Below, piece by piece: positions 9,548-62,890 of a stretch of 64,000 nucleotides of DNA. The notes below the pieces were generated by a model, which saw only the letters and a program-made list of their open reading frames with translations, was not told where the DNA came from and ran no database searches. Origin of the DNA: an uncultured Actinomycetes bacterium (GTDB lineage Bacteria > Actinomycetota > Thermoleophilia > Gaiellales > Gaiellaceae); the NCBI GenBank assembly GCA_963767525.1, contig CAVYEH010000002.1:58149-122148 (forward strand), in the 5' to 3' direction. Made by a program: the position numbers and the translations under genes. Every line of letters starts with the position of its first letter. Position 1 is the stretch's first letter.

Positions 9548-10792
9548 ATGCGAGTTCCTTTCGTCGCGCAATTAGGCATGGCGTCGATGTGCTGCTGTGT
9601 GGTCATCGCGGTGTCGGGCTGCGGTTCATCGTCCCGCGCCTCATCGTCGTTCGTGCCTTGTTCAGTCGCGCACCGGACGTACGACCTCAAGCGGAAGCAA
9701 CAGGGGCAACCGCACCTGCTCGCGGTGGCAGAGCGGGCCGGCGGAAGCGTGATCTACGCGGTGTCTCCATCGGGATTCGTGTTCGCGAGCCGGAACGAGG
9801 GCTGCGCGTGGACGCGCTTCGGTCGCCGCGTGCCGGGACTGCCGGACGGCGTCGTGGCCATCGATCCGGCGAAGCCGTCGGTGATGTTCGCTGAGAACGG
9901 CGACGCGATCGCTCGTACAGCCGATGCAGGTGCGCACTGGGCGAAGGTCGACCTTCCGGGCGGCGCTCGTGCAAAGTCGGTGCTATTCGCAGGCGAGGGC
10001 GGCCGGACTGTGTACGCGTGGGGCGGCGTGCCCGGCGGGAACGGCGGCTTTAAGCTCGAGGGCCCACCGGGCGAAATGTTCCGCAGCGATGACGGTGGCG
10101 TGACGTGGCGCAAGGTCGCCAATCCCGACCCGTATGGCACCGGCTACGTCGGGGTCGCAGCGTCGAGACCAAGGACGGTGTATGTCGGAACGGACAGCGG
10201 CCTCTTCCTGACGACTGACGGCGGCGGAAGCTGGACGGGGCGCACTAACGGACTGCCTTCCCTTTACGGGCAACCGCCCACCATCGACGCCGTGGCTGTT
10301 TCACCGACCGACTCATCGCTCGCGTTCGCCGATGCGATGCAGAAAACCGGAATGAGCGGCCACGCCGTTGGCTGGATGAACTCGGACCCGCTGGAAACGA
10401 TCTTCCGCACGACTGACGGCGGCAAGTCCTGGCAGCCGGCGCTCACCGGCGAATTCGGGGCGGACAACGGCATCGTGTTCGCGCCGCACAGCGCGCGCAC
10501 GGCCTACGCCTTGGTCCTCCGGGCGAACCGGGCACGCACGAACTCGACGCCGGGAGAGCTGTACGTAACCCACGACGGCGGAACGTCATGGCACGCGCTC
10601 CCCGGACGGGTTCCCGGGCCATGCAGGTATCCGGGCGCGGATCCGTGCGGCGACTCGCACGCCATTACGACGCTGATGGTTGACCCGCTCCACGAGAATG
10701 TCCTCTACGGAGAGACCGGCGGTGGCCGGTTCGCGCGGAGCGTTAACGGCGGCCGGAGCTGGACGTTCATGCCGATGCCGCCGAGCAAGTGA
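9548..10792 (+). CDS. Lipoprotein with BNR/Asp-box repeats (sialidase/Ycf48-like beta-propeller)
   Basis: Signal peptide with lipobox (VIAVSGC); repeated S/TxDGGxxW motifs (SDDGGVTW, TTDGGGSW, TTDGGKSW, THDGGTSW, VNGGRSW). Confidence 0.6.
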   Translation: MRVPFVAQLGMASMCCCVVIAVSGCGSSSRASSSFVPCSVAHRTYDLKRKQQGQPHLLAVAERAGGSVIYAVSPSGFVFASRNEGCAWTRFGRRVPGLPDGVVAIDPAKPSVMFAENGDAIARTADAGAHWAKVDLPGGARAKSVLFAGEGGRTVYAWGGVPGGNGGFKLEGPPGEMFRSDDGGVTWRKVANPDPYGTGYVGVAASRPRTVYVGTDSGLFLTTDGGGSWTGRTNGLPSLYGQPPTIDAVAVSPTDSSLAFADAMQKTGMSGHAVGWMNSDPLETIFRTTDGGKSWQPALTGEFGADNGIVFAPHSARTAYALVLRANRARTNSTPGELYVTHDGGTSWHALPGRVPGPCRYPGADPCGDSHAITTLMVDPLHENVLYGETGGGRFARSVNGGRSWTFMPMPPSK

Positions 10793-13761: not shown

Positions 13762-14787
13762 GTTACCTCGCGCTCGAGGACGGCACGGTCTGGCCCGGCG
13801 AGTCGGTCGGCGCGGACGGCCACGCGCCCACCTATGCACTCGGCGAGGCCGTCTTCACGACCGGCATGTCGGGCTACCAGGAGGCGGTCACCGACCCGAG
13901 CTTCGAGGACCAGCTCATCTGCTTCACGGCGCCGATGGTCGGCAACTACGGCGTCGCGGACGAGCGCGACGAGTCGGCGACGACGCACGCACGCGCGGTG
14001 CTCATGCGCGAGGCGCGCGGCCCCGAATGGACCGACTGGCTCCGCGAGCACGGCATCGTTGCGCTGACCGGGATCGACACGCGGAGCCTCGTCCTCCACC
14101 TCCGCGAGGCGGGCTCTGCGCTCGCGATCGCGGTTGCCGGAGACATGCCCGTCGACGAGGCGATCGAGCTAGCGCGTCGACAGCCGCCGATGCTCGGCCG
14201 CGCGCTCATCGCCGGCGTCTCGACGCCCCAGTCGTACGTCTTCGCGCCGGAGGGACGCGTCTCGGTCGGCGTCGTCGACTACGGCGTGAAGAACTCCGTC
14301 TTGCGCCGCCTCGCGAAGGCGGGCGCGAAGGTCACCGTTCACCCGCACGACGTCGACGCAGACACGCTCGCGGCGCACGACGGTGTCCTCCTCTCGCCGG
14401 GGCCAGGCGACCCTGAGCCGTTGACCGGCGAAGCCAAGACGGTCGAAGAGCTGCTCGGCCGCACGCCGGTGCTCGGCATCTGCCTCGGCCACCAGCTCAT
14501 CGCTCGCGCGACCGGACACGAGACCTACAAGCTCCCGTTCGGCCATCGCGGCGCGAACCACCCGGTGCTCGAGCGGCAGACAGGTCGCGTCCTCGTCACG
14601 AGCCAGAACCACGGCTTCGCGGTGCGCGCGACAGAAGCCGCCGAGGCGTCGCACGTCTCGCTTTATGACGGCACCGTCGAAGGTCTCGACTTCCCGGAGT
14701 TGCGCGCGCGGTCGCTCCAGTTCCATCCCGAAGCCGGCCCCGGCCCGCACGACGCGTGGTCGCTCATCGAGACGTGGGTGGCTGACC

Positions 14788-14798
<11 letters not shown>
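13758..14798 (+). CDS. carA: Carbamoyl-phosphate synthase small (glutaminase) subunit
   Basis: …LGICLGHQL… GATase motif; ATG overlaps the pyrC stop. Confidence 0.9.
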
Positions 14799-17862
<3,064 letters not shown>

Positions 17863-17881
<19 letters not shown>

Positions 17882-18608
17882 CTGCCGGGTCACCGGCGCC
17901 GAGCGCGTCGGCCTGTACACACTCGTTCGCGTCGAGCGCGGCGGACTCGAGCCGGGGGTGCCGGGGCAGTTCTTCATGCTCGAGGCGCCGGGACGCCTCC
18001 TACCGCGGCCGTTCTCCGTCTGCCTCGCGCCGCCGGGCGAGCTCGCGTTCCTCGTCGACGTCGTCGGCCCCGGAACCGAAGCGATCGCCGCGCTCGAGCC
18101 GGGCGACGAGATCCACGTCTTCGGCCCGCTGGGAAACGGCTATCGCCTCGACATCGCGCGCCCGCTCCTCGTCGGCGGCGGGATCGGCATCGCGCCGCTC
18201 CCGTACCTCGCCCACTGTCTCTCTGGGCACCTCGGCGGCGCGCCGCGCATCGTCGCCGGGTTCCGCACCGCGGAGCATGCCGAAGCCGCCGCGATCCTCC
18301 CCGCGCACGCCGAGGTCGTCGTCGAACCAACGCTTGTAACACAGTGTTACTTGGAAGGTTGGGACGTTCTGGCCTGTGGTCCGGAGCCGATGCTGCACGC
18401 GGTCGCTCAGCTCTGCCCTACGTCGCAGCTGGCGTGGGAAGCGCCGATGGCGTGCGGCTACGGGGCATGTTATGGCTGTGTCGTCGAGATCGACGGGCGG
18501 TTGAAACGCCTCTGCATCGATGGCCCAGTCGTCGACGCCGCGCGAATTCTCGAACCCACGAACTCGCCAAGTAACACTGTGTTACAAGGGACGGAGACGC
18601 CGGCGTGA
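17863..18608 (+). CDS. pyrK: Dihydroorotate dehydrogenase electron-transfer subunit PyrK (with two in-frame 21-bp repeat insertions)
   Basis: FAD/NAD-binding domain, ACGPEPM, MACGYGACYGCVV 2Fe-2S motif; start codon uncertain (TTG near 17863); extra heptapeptides LVTQCYL and SNTVLQG are encoded by the repeat. Confidence 0.75.
18333..18353 (-). repeat. 21-bp repeat with palindromic core, copy a (CTTGTAACACAGTGTTACTTG)
   Basis: Exact reverse complement of copies b and d; in-frame within pyrK (encodes LVTQCYL). Confidence 0.7.
18568..18588 (+). repeat. 21-bp repeat with palindromic core, copy b (CAAGTAACACTGTGTTACAAG)
   Basis: 235 bp from copy a in inverted orientation; in-frame at the pyrK 3' end (encodes SNTVLQG). 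Confidence 0.7.
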
Positions 18609-19477: not shown

Positions 19478-19823
19478 TATGCTCGCCCGGCCCATGAGTC
19501 CGACTAAGACGCAGGCGCACGCCCCCGCCCGGTCACTCGACCAGCGGATGGACGCCCTCAAGAGAGCGAACGACGTCCGCGTCAAGCGCGCGAAGCTCAA
19601 GAAGGACCTCAAGGAGGGGAAGACCAAGATCCAAACGATCCTCGGCAACCCTCCGGAGTACGTCGAGACCGCGAAGGTGATCGACATTCTCATGGCGGTG
19701 CCGAAGTTCGGGCGCGTCAAGGCCGGCCGCTTTCTCAACGTCTGCAAGATCAGCCCCTCGAAGACCGTCGGCGGCTTGTCTGAACGACAGCGCACAGAGC
19801 TGATCGGGCTCTTCAATCGCTAA
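19478..19823 (+). CDS. mihF: Actinobacterial integration host factor mIHF
   Basis: …RANDVRVKRAKLKKDLKEGK…VPKFGRVKAGRFL… typical mIHF; sits upstream of gmk as in mycobacteria. Confidence 0.7.
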
Positions 19824-36054: not shown

Positions 36055-37044
36055 TCATGAGCGCCGCGTCGAACGAGATGCGGTACTTGCGTCGCACCGC
36101 GGCGCCGGAGATCGGGTCGGTCTCCTGCTCGATGATCCAGCCGTCGCGGACCTCGGCTGAGACGCTGCCGAGCGCGTACCGACCTGGCTCGATCGAACTG
36201 TCGAGTTGGACACAGTGTTACTTGGGGGGTTTAGGCCGAGATCGCGGACTACGCGACGGATCGCACCGCTGCCGCGCCAGCTGTTCGTCAGCACCGCGAG
36301 CGCGACGCGCTCCTCCGGAACGAGAAGCAGGAGGGACTGAAAACCCGCGACCGAGCCCTCGTGGTCGAACGCGACCCGGCCGCCGTCGAGCTCGCGGCGC
36401 CAGCAGCCGAGGCAATACTCGGCGCAGAGCGCTTCCGCCTGCGGCTCCTGCAGCCCATGCGGGTCGTCGAACTGGTATTCGGCGAAACGGAGCAGGTCGC
36501 CGACCGTCGACCAGAGGCCGCCCGATGCATAGCGCGACGTGGGATAGGGCGGCGACTCGACGGGACGTTGTCCGGTCGCACCCGCTTGCACATGCCCGCG
36601 CGCCGCACCGTCGGGCTCATCGAACGATGTCGCATTGAGGCCGGACGGCTCGAGGATCCGGTCGCGCATCGCCTCGGCGAACGAGGTTCCGGTTGCCTCG
36701 GCCACGCGTTCACCGGCGGCCCAGTACCCCGAGTTCGCGTACGACCACAGTCCCTGACATGACTCCGGTAGCGGCTCCGAGACCTCGGGCTGGAGACCGG
36801 CGGTATGCGAGAGCAGCCGGCGCATCTCGTCGTCGAGCGTTCCGCATGCCGACGCGAGCGACGCGGTGAACCACTTCGTGATCGATGCGATGCGAAACGG
36901 CGTGTCGACACCCACTGGTCCGTCCGCGACGAGCTCGGCCGAACCGTCCACAAGCAGCCCCGCGGCGACTGCGGGCACGCCCGTCCGCGACCGCGCGTTG
37001 CGCACGATCTCCCCGAGCCGACCCTGCGGAATCGCGCTAGCCAT
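36055..37044 (-). CDS. Serine hydrolase, beta-lactamase (class C-like) family; C-terminal tail contains a degenerate copy of the 21-bp repeat
   Basis: SxxK motif ASITKWF; the tail after LTNSWRG reads ...[12 protein letters not shown]... (repeat-encoded), then low complexity. Confidence 0.65.
36206..36224 (-). repeat. Degenerate copy c of the repeat (TTGGACACAGTGTTACTTG)
   Basis: Shares CACAGTGTTACTTG with copy a; left half is diverged. Confidence 0.55.
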
Positions 37045-37411: not shown

Positions 37412-37504
37412 CTCCAGAAATCAGGAGGGTGGAAGTTCGAGCGAGTGCGCGCGATCGCATTGGCTCGAGCTCCCGCTCTCCACAAGCACAGTGGAGGACA
37501 ACTT

Positions 37505-40028
37505 ATGAGTATCGCGACCGATCGCCGGGCGCAGGTCTCCGTCCAGATTGGACAGCAGGAGATCAGCTTCGAAACCGGCAAGCTCGCGAAGCAGGCGGAC
37601 GGCGCAGTCGTCGTTCGCTCGGGCGAGACGATGGTTCTCGCCACCGCGGTGGGACGCTCGGAGGCCCGCGAGGGCGCCGACTTCTTCCCGCTGACGATCG
37701 ACGTCGAGGAGCGGATGTACGCCGCGGGCAAGATCCCCGGCGGCTTCTTCAAGCGCGAGGGACGCGCGAGTGAGCGCGCCACCCTGACTGCGCGGATGAT
37801 CGACCGCCCGATCCGGCCGCTTTGGCCGAAGGGTTTCCGCAACGAGGTGCAGGTCATCTGCACCGTGCTCTCGGCCGACCTCGTCACCCCGCACGACATT
37901 CTCTGCATCAACGGTGCGTCGGCTGCGCTCATGCTGTCGCCGCTGCCGTTCTTCGGGCCGGTCGGCGCGGTGCGCATCGGGCTGATCGACGGCGAGCTCG
38001 TCGTCAACCCGACGTTGCAGCAGAACTGGGAGGAGACCTCCCTCGACCTCATCGTCGTCGGCACGAAGGACGGCTTGACCATGGTCGAGGCCGGCGCCGA
38101 CGAGGTGCCGGAGGATCTGCTTCTCCAGGCGCTCGAGCTCGCGCACAGCGAGATCCGCCGCCTCTGCGAGGCGCAGGAGGATCTCCGCGCGCAGGCCGGC
38201 AAGGCGAAGTGGCTCGACGCCGACCTCAACGCCGAGATCGAGTCGTCCCAGGGGCACGCCATCTGGGAGCGGATCCAGCGCGACGGTCTCGCCGCGGCGG
38301 GAGCGATCGTCGAGGAGCTCGGTTCCGACCTCGCTCCGGCGATCTCGATGGACTCGACCGACGACGACATCCAGCGCCAGATCCAGGTGCGGACGAGCCT
38401 CAACATGCTGCTCGAGAAGCAGCGGCTTGCGGCAGTCGAGGGTCCGGTGCGGGAACAGTTCGGCGATCAGCTGAAGGCGCTCACCGACGCCGAGCAGGAC
38501 TCGAAGGAGCTCAAGTCCGCGAAGCGGCATCTCCTCTTCGATCGCATCCTCGCCGAGGTGACTCTCCCGTTCCCGTCCGGCGGCGACGAGGGAGCGATGG
38601 ACTCGCTCACGAAGTCGTACGTCAAGAAGGCGGGCGACGCGATCTACAAGGACATCGTCCGGAAGAAGATCGCCATAGACAAGCGGCGGCCCGACGGCCG
38701 CGGCACCGAGGAGATCAGGCCGATCGACGTCGAGGTCGGGATGAACCCGCGCTCGCACGGCTCCGGCCTGTTCCAGCGCGGCCAGACGCAGGTGCTCTCG
38801 TCGCTCACGCTCGGCACAGCCAAGGAGGGTCAGCGCATCGACGACCTCTCCCTCGAGCGTGATCGCCGCTACATGCACCACTACAACTTCCCGCCCTTCT
38901 CGGTCGGGGAGACCGGCTTCATGCGCGGCCCGAAGCGGCGTGACATCGGCCACGGTGCGCTCGCACAGCGCGCACTCGAAGCGATGATCCCGACCGCCGA
39001 GGACTTCCCGTACACGATCCGGATCGTCTCGGAGACGCTCGAGTCGAACGGCTCGTCGTCGATGGGCTCGGTCTGCGGATCGACGCTCTCGCTCATGGAC
39101 GCGGGCGTTCCGATCAAGGCGCCGGTCTCCGGCATCGCGATGGGCCTCGTGAAGGAGGGCGACGACTACGTCATCCTCACCGACATCCAGGGAGCCGAGG
39201 ATCACCTCGGCGACATGGACTTCAAGGTTGCCGGCACGCGCGACGGGAATCACGGCGTTGCAGATGGACATCAAGATCACCGGCGTCACGCAGGAGATCA
39301 TGAGCAACGCCCTCGCCCAGGCGAAGCAGGCCCGCAACGAGATCCTCGACACGATGCTCGCGGTCATCCCCGAGTCGCGTGCCGAGCTCGCGTCGAACGC
39401 GCCGCGCATCTCGACGATCAAGATCGATCAGGAGAAGATCGGCATGGTCATCGGCAAGGGCGGCGAGACGATCCGCGGCCTCGAGGCCGACTACGAGGTG
39501 CAGATCGACATCGAGGAGGACGGCACGATCCTCATCTACGCGACCGACGGCGAGAAGGCCGCTGCGGCGATCGCCGCGGTCGAGTCGCTCACGAAGGAGC
39601 CCGAGGTTGGCGACGCGTTCACCGGCAAGGTCGTGAAGACGACCCAGTTCGGGGCGTTCGTCGAGCTCAAGAAGGGCACCGACGGCCTGCTCCACGTGTC
39701 GAACGTCGGCCCCGGCCGCGTCGCGCACATCGAGGACGTCATGAGCCGCGGTGACGTCGTCGACGTCGTCGTGCAGGAGGTCGACAAGGCCCGCGGCCGC
39801 ATCGGCCTCAAGCTCGTCGCGAAGCACGAGGACGGCGCGATGGTCACTCCCGAGGAGCTCGTCGAGCGGGCGAAGGATGCCCCGCCGAGGCCCCCGGAGG
39901 AGGATCGGCCCCGTGGCGGCGACCGCGGCGCGGCGGTCGCGGAGGCGGTGGGCGCGACCGGCGTCCGCGTCGCGACGACGAGTAGGGCAGCGCCAAACGG
40001 TAGGACTGGGTCAAGCGGCCGGAGGTAA
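37505..40028 (+). CDS. pnp: Polyribonucleotide nucleotidyltransferase (single-base insertion frameshift ~39250)
   Basis: Two RNase PH domains, KH and S1 domains; frame switches at ...[10 protein letters not shown]|ITALQMDIK...; long actinobacterial-style C-terminal tail. Confidence 0.9.
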
Positions 40029-57885: not shown

Positions 57886-58127
57886 GTTGTCGCCTCCTGG
57901 GCCGCCAGCTCCGCCTCGATCGCTTCGCCGAGCAGGTCGATCGTCGCCTTCGCCTGCTCCTCGTCGACCTGCGCGAGCGCGAAGCCGACGTGGACGAGCA
58001 CCCAGTCGCCGACTCCGGCTTCGGGCGTGAACATGACGTTGACCGAGCGCTTGACGCCGCCGAAGTCGACCTTTCCAAGGCCGTCTTCCTGCAGCTCGAC
58101 GAGCTGGCCGGGGATCGCTAGGCACAT
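57882..58127 (-). CDS. hypC: Hydrogenase maturation protein HypC
   Basis: MCLAIPG N-terminus. Confidence 0.85.
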   Translation of the reverse strand: MCLAIPGQLVELQEDGLGKVDFGGVKRSVNVMFTPEAGVGDWVLVHVGFALAQVDEEQAKATIDLLGEAIEAELAAQEATT

Positions 58128-60304
58128 GAGAGCCTCCTCGCGGCAATCGCCGCCTGTCCGAAGCTGATGCCCCCGTCGTTCGCGGGGACGAGCCGGTGCT
58201 CGAGCACACGAAAGCCTGCCTCCTCGAGGCGCGCGCGTGTCGAGCGCGCGAGCCTACGGTTCTGGAACGAGCCGCCCGAGAGGACGACCGTGCCGCCGCC
58301 GTGCGCGCGGCACGCGTCGGCTGCTGCCGCGGCCACGGTCTCGTGGAACGCCGCCGCAATCTCCTCTCGCGCACGCCCTTCGCAAACCAGCAAGTAACAC
58401 TGTGTTACAAGGTCGGTTGTCGCTCCGAACTGCCACGGAAGCGGCTCTGCGGGCGTGTCGCCGGCGAGGAGCTCGAGCTCGATAGCCGCTTGGCCCTCGT
58501 ACGAGATGCGTTCGCGCACACCGAGGAGCGCGGCGACCGCGTCGAAGAGGCGGCCCATGCCCGAGGCGAGCGGCGCATTCACGGCGAGACTCTCCCGCAC
58601 CTGCGCCCACGCTGTCCAGGGAACGGGCAGACCGGCGCGGTCGAGATGCGCAGCCGCGATGCGCCACGGCTCGCGCACGGCGGCCTCGCCGCCGGGCAGC
58701 GGTATCGGATCGAGCCACGCGAGCCGCTCGTAGCTTTCGAGGTCGGCGCGCAGGAGCTCTCCGCCCCAGAGCGTCCCGTCGGGCCCGTAGCCGGTGCCGT
58801 CGAAGACGAGCGCGAGCGCCGGTCCGGTCTCGCCGTGCTCGGCGAGGCATGCGGCGGCGTGGGCGTGATGGTGCTGCACCTCGACGAGCGGCAGGCCGAG
58901 CTCGCGCGCCCACTTCGTCGACAGGTACTCCGGATGGAGATCGCACGCGACGGCCTCGGGCTCGACGCGAAGCATCTCGAGGTAGAGGCGCAAGTCCTCG
59001 CGGAACGCGCGGTACGCCGGCTCGGAGTCGAGGTCGCCGAGGTGCGCGGAGAGGAACGCTTCGCGCCCGCGCACGACGCAGAACGTGCTCTTGAGCTCGC
59101 CGCCGGCCGCGACGAGCGGCACCGGCGCTGCGACCGGCAGCGCGAGCGGCTGCGGCGCGTAGCCGCGAGAGCGCCGGAGAACAGCCCCCGCGCGCACGAC
59201 CGAGTCCTCGGCGCGGCGATGGATCGGGCGGTCGTGACCGAGGAACGCGTCGGCAATGTCGCCGAGCCTCCGCCGCGCCTCGGCGTCGTCGAACGCGATC
59301 GGCTCGTCGCTGCGGTTCCCGCTCGTGAGGACGATCGGCTCGCGGAGGTCGTGCCAGAGCAGGTGATGGAGCGGGGTGTAGGGGAGCATCACACCGAGCC
59401 ACGGAGAGCCGGGAGCGACCGACTCGGCGACGTTGGCGTCCGTGCGGCGCACCGCGAGAACGATCGGCCGCGCCGGCGACTCGAGCAGCGCCCGCTCGTC
59501 GGCGTCGAGAACGCAGAGCGCGTCCGGGTCGCCGGTCATGACGGCGAGCGGCTTCTCCTCGCGCTCCTTCCGCGTGCGCAGCCGCGCGACCGCCGCCTCG
59601 TCGCCCGCGAGACAGGCGAGGTGGTAGCCGCCGAGACCCTTCACCGCAACGATCCCGCCGTCGCGCAACACGGCAACTGCATCCTCGAGCGGCATCGACA
59701 ATCGCGGCCCGCACACGGGACATGCGATCGGCTCGGCGTGGAACCGGCGATCCGACGGATCCTCGTACTCGCGCCGGCAGTCGGTGCAGAGCTCGAAGCC
59801 GGCCATCGTCGTGCGCGCGCGGTCGTACGGGACGGAGCGCACGATCGTGAAGCGCGGCCCGCACTGCGTGCAGTTGAGGAACGGGTAGCGGTAGCGCCGG
59901 TCACGCGGATCGAACAGCTCGCGCAAACAGTCTTCGCACGTCGCGACGTCTGGCGGGATCGCGGCCGCGGCCCCGCCGTTGTCGGCGCTGAGCCGGATCG
60001 CGAACGCGTCATCGTGGACAACCGCGACGGGAACGGCGGCGAGCGACTCGACCCGCGCGAGAGGCGGCGCCTCGCTCACGAGCTCCGCGGCGAAGGCATC
60101 GAGCGCGGTCGCAGCGCCTTCCGCCTCGATCACGACCCCGCCACCGTCGTTGAGGACGAAGCCCGCGAGCCCGTGCGCGGACGCCAGCCGGTGGACGAAC
60201 GGCCGGAAGCCCACGCCCTGCACGACTCCCTGCGCCCGAAAGCGGCGACGTTCGACAACCGGTGTCATCGATGAGAGCGTGCCGTCTGGGGCGCTCGGCC
60301 GCAA
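58118..60304 (-). CDS. hypF: Carbamoyltransferase HypF (contains in-frame 21-bp repeat insertion)
   Basis: Acylphosphatase domain, two Zn-finger CxxC pairs, YrdC and Kae1-like domains; LVTQCYL heptapeptide near the C-terminus encoded by the repeat. Confidence 0.85.
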   Translation of the reverse strand: MRPSAPDGTLSSMTPVVERRRFRAQGVVQGVGFRPFVHRLASAHGLAGFVLNDGGGVVIEAEGAATALDAFAAELVSEAPPLARVESLAAVPVAVVHDDAFAIRLSADNGGAAAAIPPDVATCEDCLRELFDPRDRRYRYPFLNCTQCGPRFTIVRSVPYDRARTTMAGFELCTDCRREYEDPSDRRFHAEPIACPVCGPRLSMPLEDAVAVLRDGGIVAVKGLGGYHLACLAGDEAAVARLRTRKEREEKPLAVMTGDPDALCVLDADERALLESPARPIVLAVRRTDANVAESVAPGSPWLGVMLPYTPLHHLLWHDLREPIVLTSGNRSDEPIAFDDAEARRRLGDIADAFLGHDRPIHRRAEDSVVRAGAVLRRSRGYAPQPLALPVAAPVPLVAAGGELKSTFCVVRGREAFLSAHLGDLDSEPAYRAFREDLRLYLEMLRVEPEAVACDLHPEYLSTKWARELGLPLVEVQHHHAHAAACLAEHGETGPALALVFDGTGYGPDGTLWGGELLRADLESYERLAWLDPIPLPGGEAAVREPWRIAAAHLDRAGLPVPWTAWAQVRESLAVNAPLASGMGRLFDAVAALLGVRERISYEGQAAIELELLAGDTPAEPLPWQFGATTDLVTQCYLLVCEGRAREEIAAAFHETVAAAAADACRAHGGGTVVLSGGSFQNRRLARSTRARLEEAGFRVLEHRLVPANDGGISFGQAAIAARRLSCA
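58391..58411 (+). repeat. 21-bp repeat with palindromic core, copy d (CAAGTAACACTGTGTTACAAG)
   Basis: Identical to copy b; lies inside hypF on the opposite strand. Confidence 0.7.
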
Positions 60305-60345
60305 CCGGGGAAGGCACTACAGCGGGGGACGTAGAATCCCTGCAC

Positions 60346-61231
60346 ATGCTTGGTGCAGTCCTCACAGCGATGGTCACGCCGTTCAAGCCGGACGGCTCGG
60401 TCGACGTCGACAGCTTCCGCGAGCTCGCGACGTACCTCGTCGACAACGGCTCCGACGGCGTCGTCGTGTGCGGCACCACGGGCGAGTCGCCGACGCTGAG
60501 CGACAAGGAGAAGCTCCTCCTCTTTGCGGCGGCGCGGGACACGGTTGGCGACCGCGCGACCGTCATCGCCGGCACGGGGACGTACGACACGGCGCACTCC
60601 GTCCATCTCACGCAGCAGGCGGAGCACCTCGGCGTCGACGGCGTTCTCGTCGTGACGCCGTACTACAACAAGCCGCCGCAGCGGGCGATCGTCAAGCACT
60701 TCGAGGCGATCGCGGCGGCGTCCGACCTTCCGATCATCGCGTACAACATCCCCGGCCGCGTCATCGTGAACATCGAGCCGATCACGATCTCGCGCCTCGC
60801 GGAGATCGACACCGTCGTCGCCGTGAAGCAGGCGCACGACAACCTCGACGAGGCGCGCTTCATCGCCGACCAGACGCGCCTCGACCTCTACTCCGGGGAC
60901 GATCCGAACACGCTCGCGTTCCTCGATGTCGGCGCGAAGGGCGTCGTCTCGGTCACGGCGCACCTGTGGGGGAACGCAGATCGCCGAGATGATCCGCCTC
61001 CACGGTGCCGGCGACTACGCGGGCGCGCGCGCTCTCGACGCCGAGATGGAGCCGTCCTACGAGCTGCTGCGGGTGCAGGTGAACCCGATCCCGATCAAGG
61101 CGGCGCTCAACCTCATGGGCCATGCGGTCGGCGGCCACCGCCTGCCGATGGTCGAGCCGACGAAGGACGAGCTAGGCGAGATCCGCACGTGCCTCGAGCG
61201 CGCCGGCCTCGTCGCCGCAACGTCCGCCTGA
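60346..61231 (+). CDS. dapA: 4-hydroxy-tetrahydrodipicolinate synthase (frameshift ~60975)
   Basis: …TPFKPDGSVD…GTTGES…KQA…; C-terminus in the 60926 frame. Confidence 0.85.
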
Positions 61232-62890
61232 TGGGCGTTTGCCGGATCATCCCGCTCGGCGGCCTCGGCGAGGTCGGCAAGAACATGACCGTGTACGAGG
61301 CCGACGGCGCGATCGTCGTCGTCGACGCCGGTCTGGCGTTCCCGCGCGACGAGCACCTCGGCGTCGACCTCGTCCTGCCCGACTTCTCGTACCTGCGCGA
61401 GCGCGAGGAGATGGTGCGCGCCGTCATCCTCACGCATGGCCACGAAGACCACGTCGGCTCGCTTCCGTACCTCATGCGCGAGGTGCAGGTGCCGCTCGTC
61501 ATCGCGACGCGCCTCACGCTCGCGCTCGTCAAGTCGAAGCTCGACGAGCACGGCCTCGCCCAAGCCGCCGAGCTGCGCGAGCTCATGCCGGGAGACGATC
61601 CGCAGCAGGTCGGCCCGTTCCGCATCGAGATGGTGCGGATGGCGCACTCGATCCCCGACTCGGCCGCCGTCGTCCTCGAGACGCCCGGCGGGCGCTGCGT
61701 CCACACGGGCGACTACAAGCTCGACCACACGCCGGTCGACGGCCAGCGCACCGACGTCGGCCGCCTCGCCGAGATCGGCAGCCAGGGAGTCGACCTGCTC
61801 CTCGGCGACTCGACGAACGCCGAGCGCGCGGGCGTGACGCAGTCGGAGCGCGTCGTCGGCGAGGCATTCCGCCAGATCTTCCCGCAGCGCACCGGCCGGA
61901 TCATCGTCTCGTCGTTCGCGTCGAACGTCCACCGCATGCAGCAGGCCGCCGATGTCGGCGTGAGCTGCGGCCGCAAGGTCGCGTTCGTCGGCCGCTCGAT
62001 GCGGAAGAACGGGAACATCGCGCGCAGCCTCGGCTACATGGACATTCCCGACCACGCGATCCTCAACCCGAAGAATCTCGCCGACCTGCCGCGCGACCAG
62101 CAGCTCATCCTCTGCACCGGCAGCCAGGGCGAGCCGATGTCGGCCATGACCCGCATCGCGTACAACGACCACGGCCAGGTCAAGGTCGAGGCCGGCGACA
62201 CGGTGATCATCTCCGCGAAGCCGATCCCGGGGAACGAGCTGCGCGTCCACGACGCGATCAACCGCCTCGCGAAGATGGGCGCCGAGGTGCTGCACGAGGA
62301 CAACGCGCCCGTGCACGTCTCCGGCCACGGCAAGGCGGAGGAGCTGCGCACGATCATCGGCCTCACGCGCCCGAAGGCGGTGATGCCGATGCACGGCGAG
62401 TTCCGGATGCTCGCCGCGCACGCGCAGATCGCGCGCGAGGGCGGCGTTCCCGACGACCGCATCATCATGGCCGAGAACGGCACGGTCGTCGAGCTACGCG
62501 ATGGTGTTCCGAACGATCGTCGACGAGGTTCCGGCCGGGATGACGTTCGTCGACGGCCTGGGAGTGGGGGACGTCCACGACGTCGCGCTCCGCGACCGGC
62601 GGCGGCTCGCCGAGGACGGCGTCCTCATCGTCGTCGCGACGGTGGCGATCGACGACGACGAGGGCCTGACCGCGCCGCCGGAGCTCATTGCGCGCGGCTT
62701 CGGCGAGGGGGCCGAGCCACTCCTCGAGGAGCTGCGCGAAGAAGCGAACCGCGTCCTCCGCGACCTGCTCGAAGGCGACGTGACCGAGATCAAGCTCCTC
62801 CAAGAGCACCTGCATGAAGCGCTCGGGAAGATCGTCTACAACCGCACGCGCCGACGCCCGATGATCCTGCCGGTCATTGTCGAGGTCTGA
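61231..62890 (+). CDS. rnj: Ribonuclease J (frameshift ~62505)
   Basis: Metallo-beta-lactamase HGHEDH, beta-CASP, RNase J C-terminal domain; ATG overlaps the dapA stop. Confidence 0.85.

Follow-up and report, generated by a model that had tools for sequence, protein, structure and literature searches.

Why should the same 21-bp palindromic sequence be read in frame within conserved genes of an uncultured Gaiellaceae bacterium, twice in pyrK alone, and is it an insertion, an inversion site or the site of a DNA-binding protein? In the window, by which we mean the whole stretch of 64 kb that was analysed (G+C ~70 %), the 21-mer CAAGTAACACTGTGTTACAAG occurs exactly at 18333-18353 (in its reverse-complement form), 18568-18588 and 58391-58411, and 100 dinucleotide-preserving shuffles gave 0 matches to it at up to 3 mismatches. 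Its 15-bp core is a perfect 7-1-7 palindrome; the whole 21-mer is divisible by three in length, and four of its six frames are open. The heptamer GTGTTAC is confined to four places in the 64 kb, namely the three exact copies and a decayed copy, AGTTGGACACAGTGTTACTTG, at 36204..36224, where 16 of 21 bases match (five mismatches) and the right-hand 15 nt are exact, one half-site being intact and the other degraded. The host of this decayed site is a beta-lactamase-family ORF on the minus strand (36055-37044; Pfam Beta-lactamase), whose 3' end is ~150 nt away. The initial annotation had already listed these four copies, and its coordinates hold for the three exact ones, whereas the decayed one spans 36204-36224 and not 36206-36224; the peptides that it had read from the sites (LVTQCYL, SNTVLQG and PSNTVSN) and the host ORFs that it had named, a PyrK-type protein and HypF, were reproduced, the third host belonging to the beta-lactamase family by Pfam. 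In an Rfam scan of the window only a tRNA at 659-731 reached threshold and no family covers the sites, while the segment 18300-18620 gave no match in PLSDB, leaving a plasmid origin unsupported. As a side observation, GGTT stands 4-8 nt outside the site in 3 of the 4 copies in the window, and likewise ahead of the small gene described below, but in just 16 % of flanks overall.

The motif recurs well beyond the window, as the initial annotation had supposed. A scan of species-representative genomes turned up at least 116 contig blocks with the exact 21-mer, whose records are nearly all titled as Gaiellaceae, Gaiellales, Thermoleophilia or uncultured Actinomycetes MAGs. These MAGs come from several projects and from short-read as well as long-read assemblers, and with the motif present across so many projects and assemblers an artefact or linker origin is ruled out. 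Among the matches listed, the density in Gaiellales is estimated at roughly one locus per 20-35 kb, and ~25 extra independent sites were seen in 892 kb of ascertained loci. At least three forms of the core, which we call dialects, could be distinguished: GTAACAC-N-GTGTTAC (dialect A), GTGACAA-N-TTGTCAC (dialect B, in at least 120 metagenome stretches, several of which share the same large contigs) and GTAACAG-N-CTGTTAC (dialect C). They are lineage-specific and differ by changes that are mirrored in both arms. When the flanks were left open in the search (CWWG), the four combinations of CAAG and CTTG flanks were about equally frequent (35/30/28/26) and AT and TA steps were rare, as expected of symmetric recognition and not of copying from a master element. 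The flank symmetry therefore gives a half-site C-(AA/TT)-G-T-[AG]-A-C-A-N and a site without orientation, and the description of the two pyrK copies as inverted loses its meaning, the core being a perfect palindrome. In the literature searched, the motif string appeared in no relevant context, and no paper joined Gaiellales with palindromic repeats.

Whether the 21 bp had been added to genes could be judged in pyrK (17862..18608, plus strand; Pfam DHODB_Fe-S_bind), which encodes the 248-residue electron-transfer subunit of dihydroorotate dehydrogenase and hosts two of the exact copies; its product is 100 % identical to a protein encoded on an 892-kb contig (P0001). Site P1 (18333..18353, dialect A, an exact match) encodes LVTQCYL. 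PyrK homologues keep equal length across P1 (120 homologues), and the very heptapeptide that had been taken for an addition occurs in 12 of the 120, most others having LVTSCHL, LVTDCYL or, in deeper relatives, LVTELI[DE], all of the same length. The corresponding codons are CTTGTAACACAGTGTTACTTG in the window and in loci L103 and L087, CTTGTGACAAGTTGTCACTTG in L117, CTTGTAACAGACTGTTACCTG in L120 and the non-palindromic CTCGTGACGGATTGCGACTTG in L118; depending on the orthologue, identical positions carry dialect A, B or C. Site P2 (18568..18588, dialect A, again an exact match to CAAGTAACACTGTGTTACAAG) encodes SNTVLQ in a C-terminal extension of PyrK and lies 16 nt upstream of the GTG start of pyrD at 18605. 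This 3' extension of 17-21 codons (18534..18605, plus strand, with boundaries that are approximate because the indel is old) is absent from PyrK orthologues of 222-225 residues, which have no C-terminal tail and in which pyrK overlaps pyrD. The counterpart of P2 is a dialect B site, CAAGTGACAACTTGTCACAAG, in L117, is decayed in L120 and L103 and is absent from L118 and L087. Among the 30 informative PyrK homologues, P1 and P2 are of the same dialect in every case (25 B/B, 3 C/C and 2 A/A), and therefore sites at fixed orthologous positions change dialect together.

The other coding sites tested agree with P1. Site P3 (58391..58411, dialect A, an exact match, again encoding LVTQCYL) is located in hypF on the minus strand (58118..60304; carbamoyltransferase HypF; Pfam HypF_C_2, Sua5_yciO_yrdC, zf-HYPF and Acylphosphatase), and the HypF segment DLVTQCYLLVCEGRAREEIAAAFHE aligns residue for residue with the solved HypF structures 3vth and 3tsp. 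LVTQCYLVL is also encoded by L042 and L069, in a frame that is open and high in GC3. At related loci, the alignment of MetH with solved homologues is gap-free at the site, MurE shows a net one-residue difference and QueA is 3-5 residues shorter there. None of the five coding sites tested (PyrK P1, HypF, QueA, MurE and MetH) thus carries a 7-residue insertion, so these sites were written into existing codons by substitution; extra sequence is found only at P2, in the tail of 17-21 residues that some orthologues lack. Flanking direct repeats of at least 3 nt were not found above control around singlets or doublets, and in-frame insertion is ruled out at the five sites by the protein and DNA alignments. 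The earlier claim that removal of the 21 bp restores a contiguous protein is wrong for P1 and HypF, because homologues have residues of the same length there, and applies loosely to P2 only, as part of the C-terminal extension. Annotation of the peptides LVTQCYL, SNTVLQ and SDKLSQ as insertions or assembly artefacts is unwarranted, and conserved coding sequence can evidently acquire long perfect palindromes with no indel.

Sites are over-represented outside genes and gather at gene 3' ends. Using a codon-usage gene caller, which labelled 89 % of the sequence as coding, it was found that only 37 % of dialect A sites and 54 % of dialect B sites lie within genes. Between genes, sites exceed expectation 2.2-fold in convergent gaps and fall 4.5-fold short of it in divergent ones (chi-square 44, p = 3e-10), and many sites either lie 1-5 nt past a stop codon or contain it. 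Coding sites use two stop-free frames, with x-S-[ND]-x-[VL]-[LS]-[QL] preferred ~3:1 over [LQ]-V-T-x-C-[YH]-[LK]; a third frame carries TAA in dialect A or TGA in dialect B, and in 24 A and 10 B cases the upstream gene ends on this triplet. The bias to gene 3' ends and the depletion in divergent gaps make a promoter regulon unlikely, and a transcription-factor regulon was rejected in view of this scarcity, the gene of the small protein described below being the exception.

Sites also tend to occur as doublets. Next-neighbour distances among dialect A loci include 31 at 53-56 bp and 5 at 75-78 bp, and dialect B has a peak at 54-55 bp as well. The doublet spacers of 33-35 nt are mutually unrelated even within one genome, similar only between orthologues, and fold no better than shuffled sequences (mean z +0.19). 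Whole doublets do form long hairpins (-27 to -49 kcal/mol), a trivial result because two palindromes pair with each other. Genomes may differ in having a single site or a doublet at the same orthologous position, as they do inside queA, where indels of one site plus spacer were observed. Tandem duplication as the source of the doublets was set aside, since the spacers are unlike the flanks by eye; so were a REPIN/MITE-type conserved or structured spacer, given that the spacers are unrelated and unstructured, and a CRISPR array, as the units are almost only singlets or doublets, many of them intragenic, with a repeat of 21 bp. The length (33-35 bp) and uniqueness of the spacers do resemble those of CRISPR arrays. 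No cas genes were seen among the called genes of those fetched loci that list Pfam hits.

A candidate for the protein that reads these sites emerged from pairs of sites 368-391 bp apart, which enclose an ORF of ~95 residues. At all 18 distinct loci of this small gene an upstream site is centred ~70-100 bp before its start, and at most of them a second site is found at or just past its stop. When loci were fetched through the protein alone, and hence without bias towards the motif, sites again flanked the gene, and the 9-20 kb of these loci contained no more than one or two others. The genomic context varies: the gene lies between trpB and trpA in L251 and L252, between trpB and a methyltransferase gene preceding trpA in L254, between an MFS transporter gene and uvrC in L040, L072 and L128, and in further contexts in other lineages, the uvrC-adjacent cassette being present in every uvrC locus compared. 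The window itself holds no copy, and presence of the gene in the source genome is assumed. Between the upstream site and the gene no convincing -10 element of a sigma-70-like promoter was recognised by eye.

Searches of Pfam and NCBIfam gave no family for the small protein, only scattered single-member chance matches, and neither ParB nor any other Pfam domain was detected in the 3 + 85 members scanned. A profile search retrieved 461 cluster representatives (at 50 % identity), of which the best 150 are all 50-170 residues long; among these 150 there is no catalytic domain, no Y1_Tnp or DDE match and no longer relative with a transposase catalytic domain. The protein is predicted to adopt a helix-turn-helix-like fold. 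Foldseek against the PDB returned no match at E <= 0.001; the best structural matches of the protein are the end-binding helix-turn-helix domains of TnsB, Tc3, Mos1, MuA and SETMAR. The sites that flank the gene are of dialect A, B, C or intermediate, and the two residues following the invariant Tyr of R-P-S-Y-x-x-V-R track base 7 of the half-site with 0 discordant cases: QR/QC occur with C (6 loci), ER with A (5 loci, and 2 with mixed A/C) and EQ/QQ with G (4 loci). These covarying residues open the predicted helix 46-58, which would be the recognition helix. The link between protein and site consists of this covariation and the physical linkage among related lineages, which are non-independent observations.

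Several other explanations deserve to be weighed against these data. The 21-mer, or the 75-bp doublet, may be thought of as a selfish element like REP/REPINs or MITEs, copied by a trans-acting transposase with the small gene in a RAYT-like role, a comparison invited by the doublets and the bracketed gene. We regard this as unlikely, since all five coding sites tested are substitutions in place with no target-site duplication, doublet spacers are unrelated within a genome and fold like shuffles (mean z +0.19), the four flank combinations are equally common instead of bearing the mark of a master copy, dialects switch at fixed orthologous positions, and the ~95-residue protein has no catalytic domain and no Y1_Tnp/DDE match among the best 150 of the 461 representatives (50-170 residues). 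The related proposal of the initial annotation, a 21-bp in-frame insertion in the manner of a miniature RPE or an excision footprint of a mobile or homing element, or else a site for recombination or inversion of the 213-bp pyrK segment, fares much worse. It could draw on the length being a multiple of three with four of six frames open, on the placement of P2 within an inserted tail and on the indels of one site plus spacer inside queA, and yet there is no 7-residue insertion at PyrK P1, HypF, QueA, MurE or MetH, homologues being of the same length, and no target-site duplication. As for inversion, the segment between P1 and P2 is collinear in every pyrK orthologue examined and the site has no orientation. 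Tyrosine and serine recombinases, moreover, use a crossover spacer, for which the single-base centre of the palindrome leaves no room, and in sum this proposal is scarcely credible. The insertion reading also falls by the criterion that the initial annotation had itself set, PyrK homologues sharing the heptapeptide.

A motif of the DNA-uptake-sequence kind, in which a bias of uptake, recombination or repair drives near-matches to perfection wherever coding allows, agrees with several of the observations. The enrichment at gene 3' ends fits the DUS pairs reported at gene 3' ends, and a drive of this kind would account for concerted re-writing better than selection site by site. Origin by point mutation at poorly conserved coding positions with a frame bias is as in USS/DUS (PMC2817400), as are the lineage-specific dialects in DUS (PMC3630211). 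The density, however, is ~20-35 times below the ~1 per kb of genomes bearing uptake sequences (PMC2817400), with 4 sites in the 64 kb of the window, and the motif is palindromic, perfect and long. Nor do the known uptake systems resemble a cytoplasmic-looking helix-turn-helix gene with sites on both sides, and this explanation appears unlikely, slightly more so than the selfish element. We know of no demonstration of competence in a Gaiellales lineage. Less probable again is an element that acts at the RNA level, with transcribed copies, especially doublets, forming hairpins that terminate transcription or stabilise 3' ends. Such a role would suit the bias to gene 3' ends, with many sites 1-5 nt past or containing the stop codon, and the doublet hairpins of -27 to -49 kcal/mol, but a single site makes at most a 6-bp A/U-rich stem, no U-tract follows it, the spacers are unstructured, 37-54 % of sites are intragenic and no Rfam family matches; the behaviour of the AA/TT flanks and the covariation with the protein point instead to recognition of double-stranded DNA.

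With these alternatives in mind, we lean, with somewhat better than even confidence, towards considering the 21-mer family as dyad-symmetric sites of the ~95-residue helix-turn-helix protein, which would be landmarks or roadblocks on the chromosome and not a promoter regulon. The full site can be written as C-(AA/TT)-G-TAACAC-N-GTGTTA-C-(AA/TT)-G, and we infer its binding by protein from the comparison of sequences. Symmetric flanks, mirrored dialects, the lack of scars and retention at orthologous positions point to a symmetric binder of double-stranded DNA, and not to copy-and-paste spread. The putative binder, a hitherto undescribed protein, is presumably dimeric and, with its own gene bracketed by sites, might regulate itself. 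Site and protein would be inherited together and co-evolve, the residues at the start of the recognition helix shifting with the dialect. Intragenic sites would arise by substitution within codons already present, at positions that tolerate change and mainly in the two stop-free frames, and would then be retained at orthologous positions and re-written upon a change of dialect. In the cell, the sites may serve as roadblocks, insulators or nucleoid-organising landmarks, possibly bridged in pairs; their leaning to gene 3' ends and their scarcity in divergent gaps suggest landmarks that are tolerated or used away from promoters. Among the possibilities raised by the initial annotation, whose observations are partly confirmed and whose interpretation is partly supported, the binding site of a regulator or nucleoid protein is the one that the evidence now favours.

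Some features sit uneasily with simple selection for binding sites. Concerted re-writing of ~100 sites is hard to achieve through ordinary selection at each site, and a drive or homogenising process may be involved; the sharp 54-56 bp spacing of doublets with unrelated spacers and the indels between single sites and doublets are likewise not explained by simple selection for binding. A more speculative extension is self-perpetuating site-writing, in which the small protein would bias repair, recombination or the choice of replication template at near-cognate sequences and so perfect sites in place without transposition or uptake. Such a process would explain the concerted switching of dialect at ~100 sites, including those in essential genes, the random orientation of flanks and the lack of insertion scars, but we give it only a small chance of being correct, about that of the uptake motif.

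If the link between protein and site holds, an unnamed family with 461 cluster representatives at 50 % identity gains a DNA target, and Gaiellales, an almost uncultured soil lineage, gains genome-wide sequence landmarks. The system would also offer a natural case of co-evolution in protein-DNA specificity, with at least three dialects and two candidate specificity residues, and orthologous sites in conserved genes could be used as an internal clock. Palindromes that arise in place bear, in addition, on the origin and uniformity of dispersed motifs such as REP, HIP1 and uptake sequences.

Among known systems, Noc-NBS, ParB-parS, MatP-matS and SlmA-SBS represent nucleoid-associated proteins with dispersed chromosomal sites, which number from tens to ~100 per chromosome, are in many cases intragenic, are conserved at the DNA level and are not promoter operators. 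The NBSs of Noc in Bacillus are short dyad-symmetric sites scattered on the chromosome (PMC4331003, PMC8429893), and the Gaiellales sites, presumably protein-bound, are likewise short, dyad-symmetric and dispersed, also within genes. They differ from sites of the Noc/ParB type in their greater length (21 bp), in the doublets at 54-56 bp and in the preference for gene 3' ends, and the system as a whole differs in its lineage dialects, in the bracketing of its own gene by two sites at most loci and in a candidate binder that is a stand-alone ~95-residue helix-turn-helix protein of no Pfam or NCBIfam family. Domesticated transposase DNA-binding domains that recognise scattered transposon ends, such as SETMAR with the Hsmar1 inverted repeats, offer another parallel, the Gaiellales protein also being a predicted stand-alone DNA-binding domain with many genomic sites. 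RPEs of Rickettsia are insertions of ~100-150 bp that add residues; they share with the Gaiellales sites the nature of palindromic repeats placed in frame inside conserved genes, whereas the latter add no residues in any of the five tests.

In REP-RAYT systems the linked gene is flanked by repeats, and repeat and gene co-evolve. REPs and REPINs are short, lineage-specific palindromic repeats found both singly and in doublets of preferred spacing (Bertels and Rainey 2011, PMC3116915), as are the Gaiellales sites. The doublets and the bracketed gene suit this analogy, but it breaks down over extragenic confinement and the kind of protein involved, and the hairpin appears not to extend to the spacers. 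REPs are extragenic, and 37-54 % of the Gaiellales sites lie in genes and arose in place; REPINs are hairpin doublets, whereas the Gaiellales doublets fold trivially and their spacers are unrelated and unstructured; and RAYTs are tyrosine transposases related to IS200/IS605, whereas the Gaiellales protein has no catalytic signature. USS arise through point mutations at poorly conserved sites of coding sequence, with a bias in reading frame, and the genomes tabulated carry ~1 site per kb (PMC2817400); DUS form species-specific dialects (PMC3630211), and their receptor in Neisseria is the ComP protein (PMC3868556). The Gaiellales motif is also written in place, biased in frame and divided into dialects, but it is ~20-35 times sparser, palindromic, 21 bp long and linked to a helix-turn-helix gene bracketed by its sites. 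The Gaiellales system is a member of none of the families tested, and is an undescribed variant of the theme of dispersed palindromic sites with a cognate protein, here a candidate one.

In three genomes, the gene of the roughly 95-residue helix-turn-helix protein, the candidate binder of the 21-bp palindromic site, was found together with its flanking sites directly 3' of trpB (L251, positions 10001-10288; L252, 10001-10276; L254, 10001-10306). The next gene is trpA in the first two of these loci, and in L254 a methyltransferase gene lies between the small gene and trpA. The flanking sites in all three carry A as the seventh base of the half-site (GTGACAA or GTAACAA type). The shared placement directly after trpB suggests that the trp operon of this lineage acquired the bracketed small gene as a cassette.

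Read in its third frame, the site holds TAA in dialect A (half-site GTAACAC) or TGA in dialect B (GTGACAA). In 34 cases across loci of both dialects, the gene preceding the site in fact terminates at this codon, the small gene being among the genes so terminated; L125 6508-6528 and L122 10213-10233 are examples of such sites.

Some sites are accompanied on one side by a GGTT-containing extension, 4-8 nt outside the site, with a consensus of roughly G-N-N-GGTT-C/G-GG. It occurs at three of the four copies in the window (18354-18366, 58412-58424 and 36225-36237) and also adjoins the site that precedes the small gene in L128, L072 and L125; overall, only 16% of flanks carry it. A longer, asymmetric subclass of the site may exist.

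Reading of ORF sequences further pointed to polymerase-like hosts, amongst which each ORF resembling the DnaE-type polymerase III alpha subunit holds either a single conserved site or two, and a putative DNA polymerase I-like ORF holds a conserved in-frame doublet of sites. These polymerase-like ORFs lie in L065 (sites at 1292 and 2858), L050 (2034), L115 (6364), L219 (5482), L071 (1463/1517), L025 and L089. Locus L016 has a rare triplet of sites at 2190-2330. Its two spacers, 34 and 43 nt long, are alike in their 3' parts, and the triplet looks as if a spacer and its adjoining site had been duplicated locally. One contig labelled as a Verrucomicrobiota MAG (L091, JBLMYA010000066.1) bears a doublet of dialect A, as is typical of Gaiellales, and is probably mis-binned.

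Several conserved genes of the window show apparent frameshifts (14665-17881, 37445-39754 and 60262-62817). carB is split into two frames with a break near 15.9 kb, whereas in related loci a single gene encodes all 1030 residues; towards its end the PNPase ORF degenerates into Arg/His-rich nonsense, and dapA and RNase J are fused in a single ORF. These cases look like indel errors of a long-read MAG and not biology.

The only Rfam match in the window above the gathering threshold is a tRNA gene on the minus strand (659-731). Downstream of pyrD, and followed by guanylate-kinase and rpoZ homologues, an ORF at 19479-19823 looks like actinobacterial integration host factor (mIHF); at the equivalent position, related loci give an H2TH_5 Pfam match. 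This mIHF-like ORF and the small helix-turn-helix family are unrelated.
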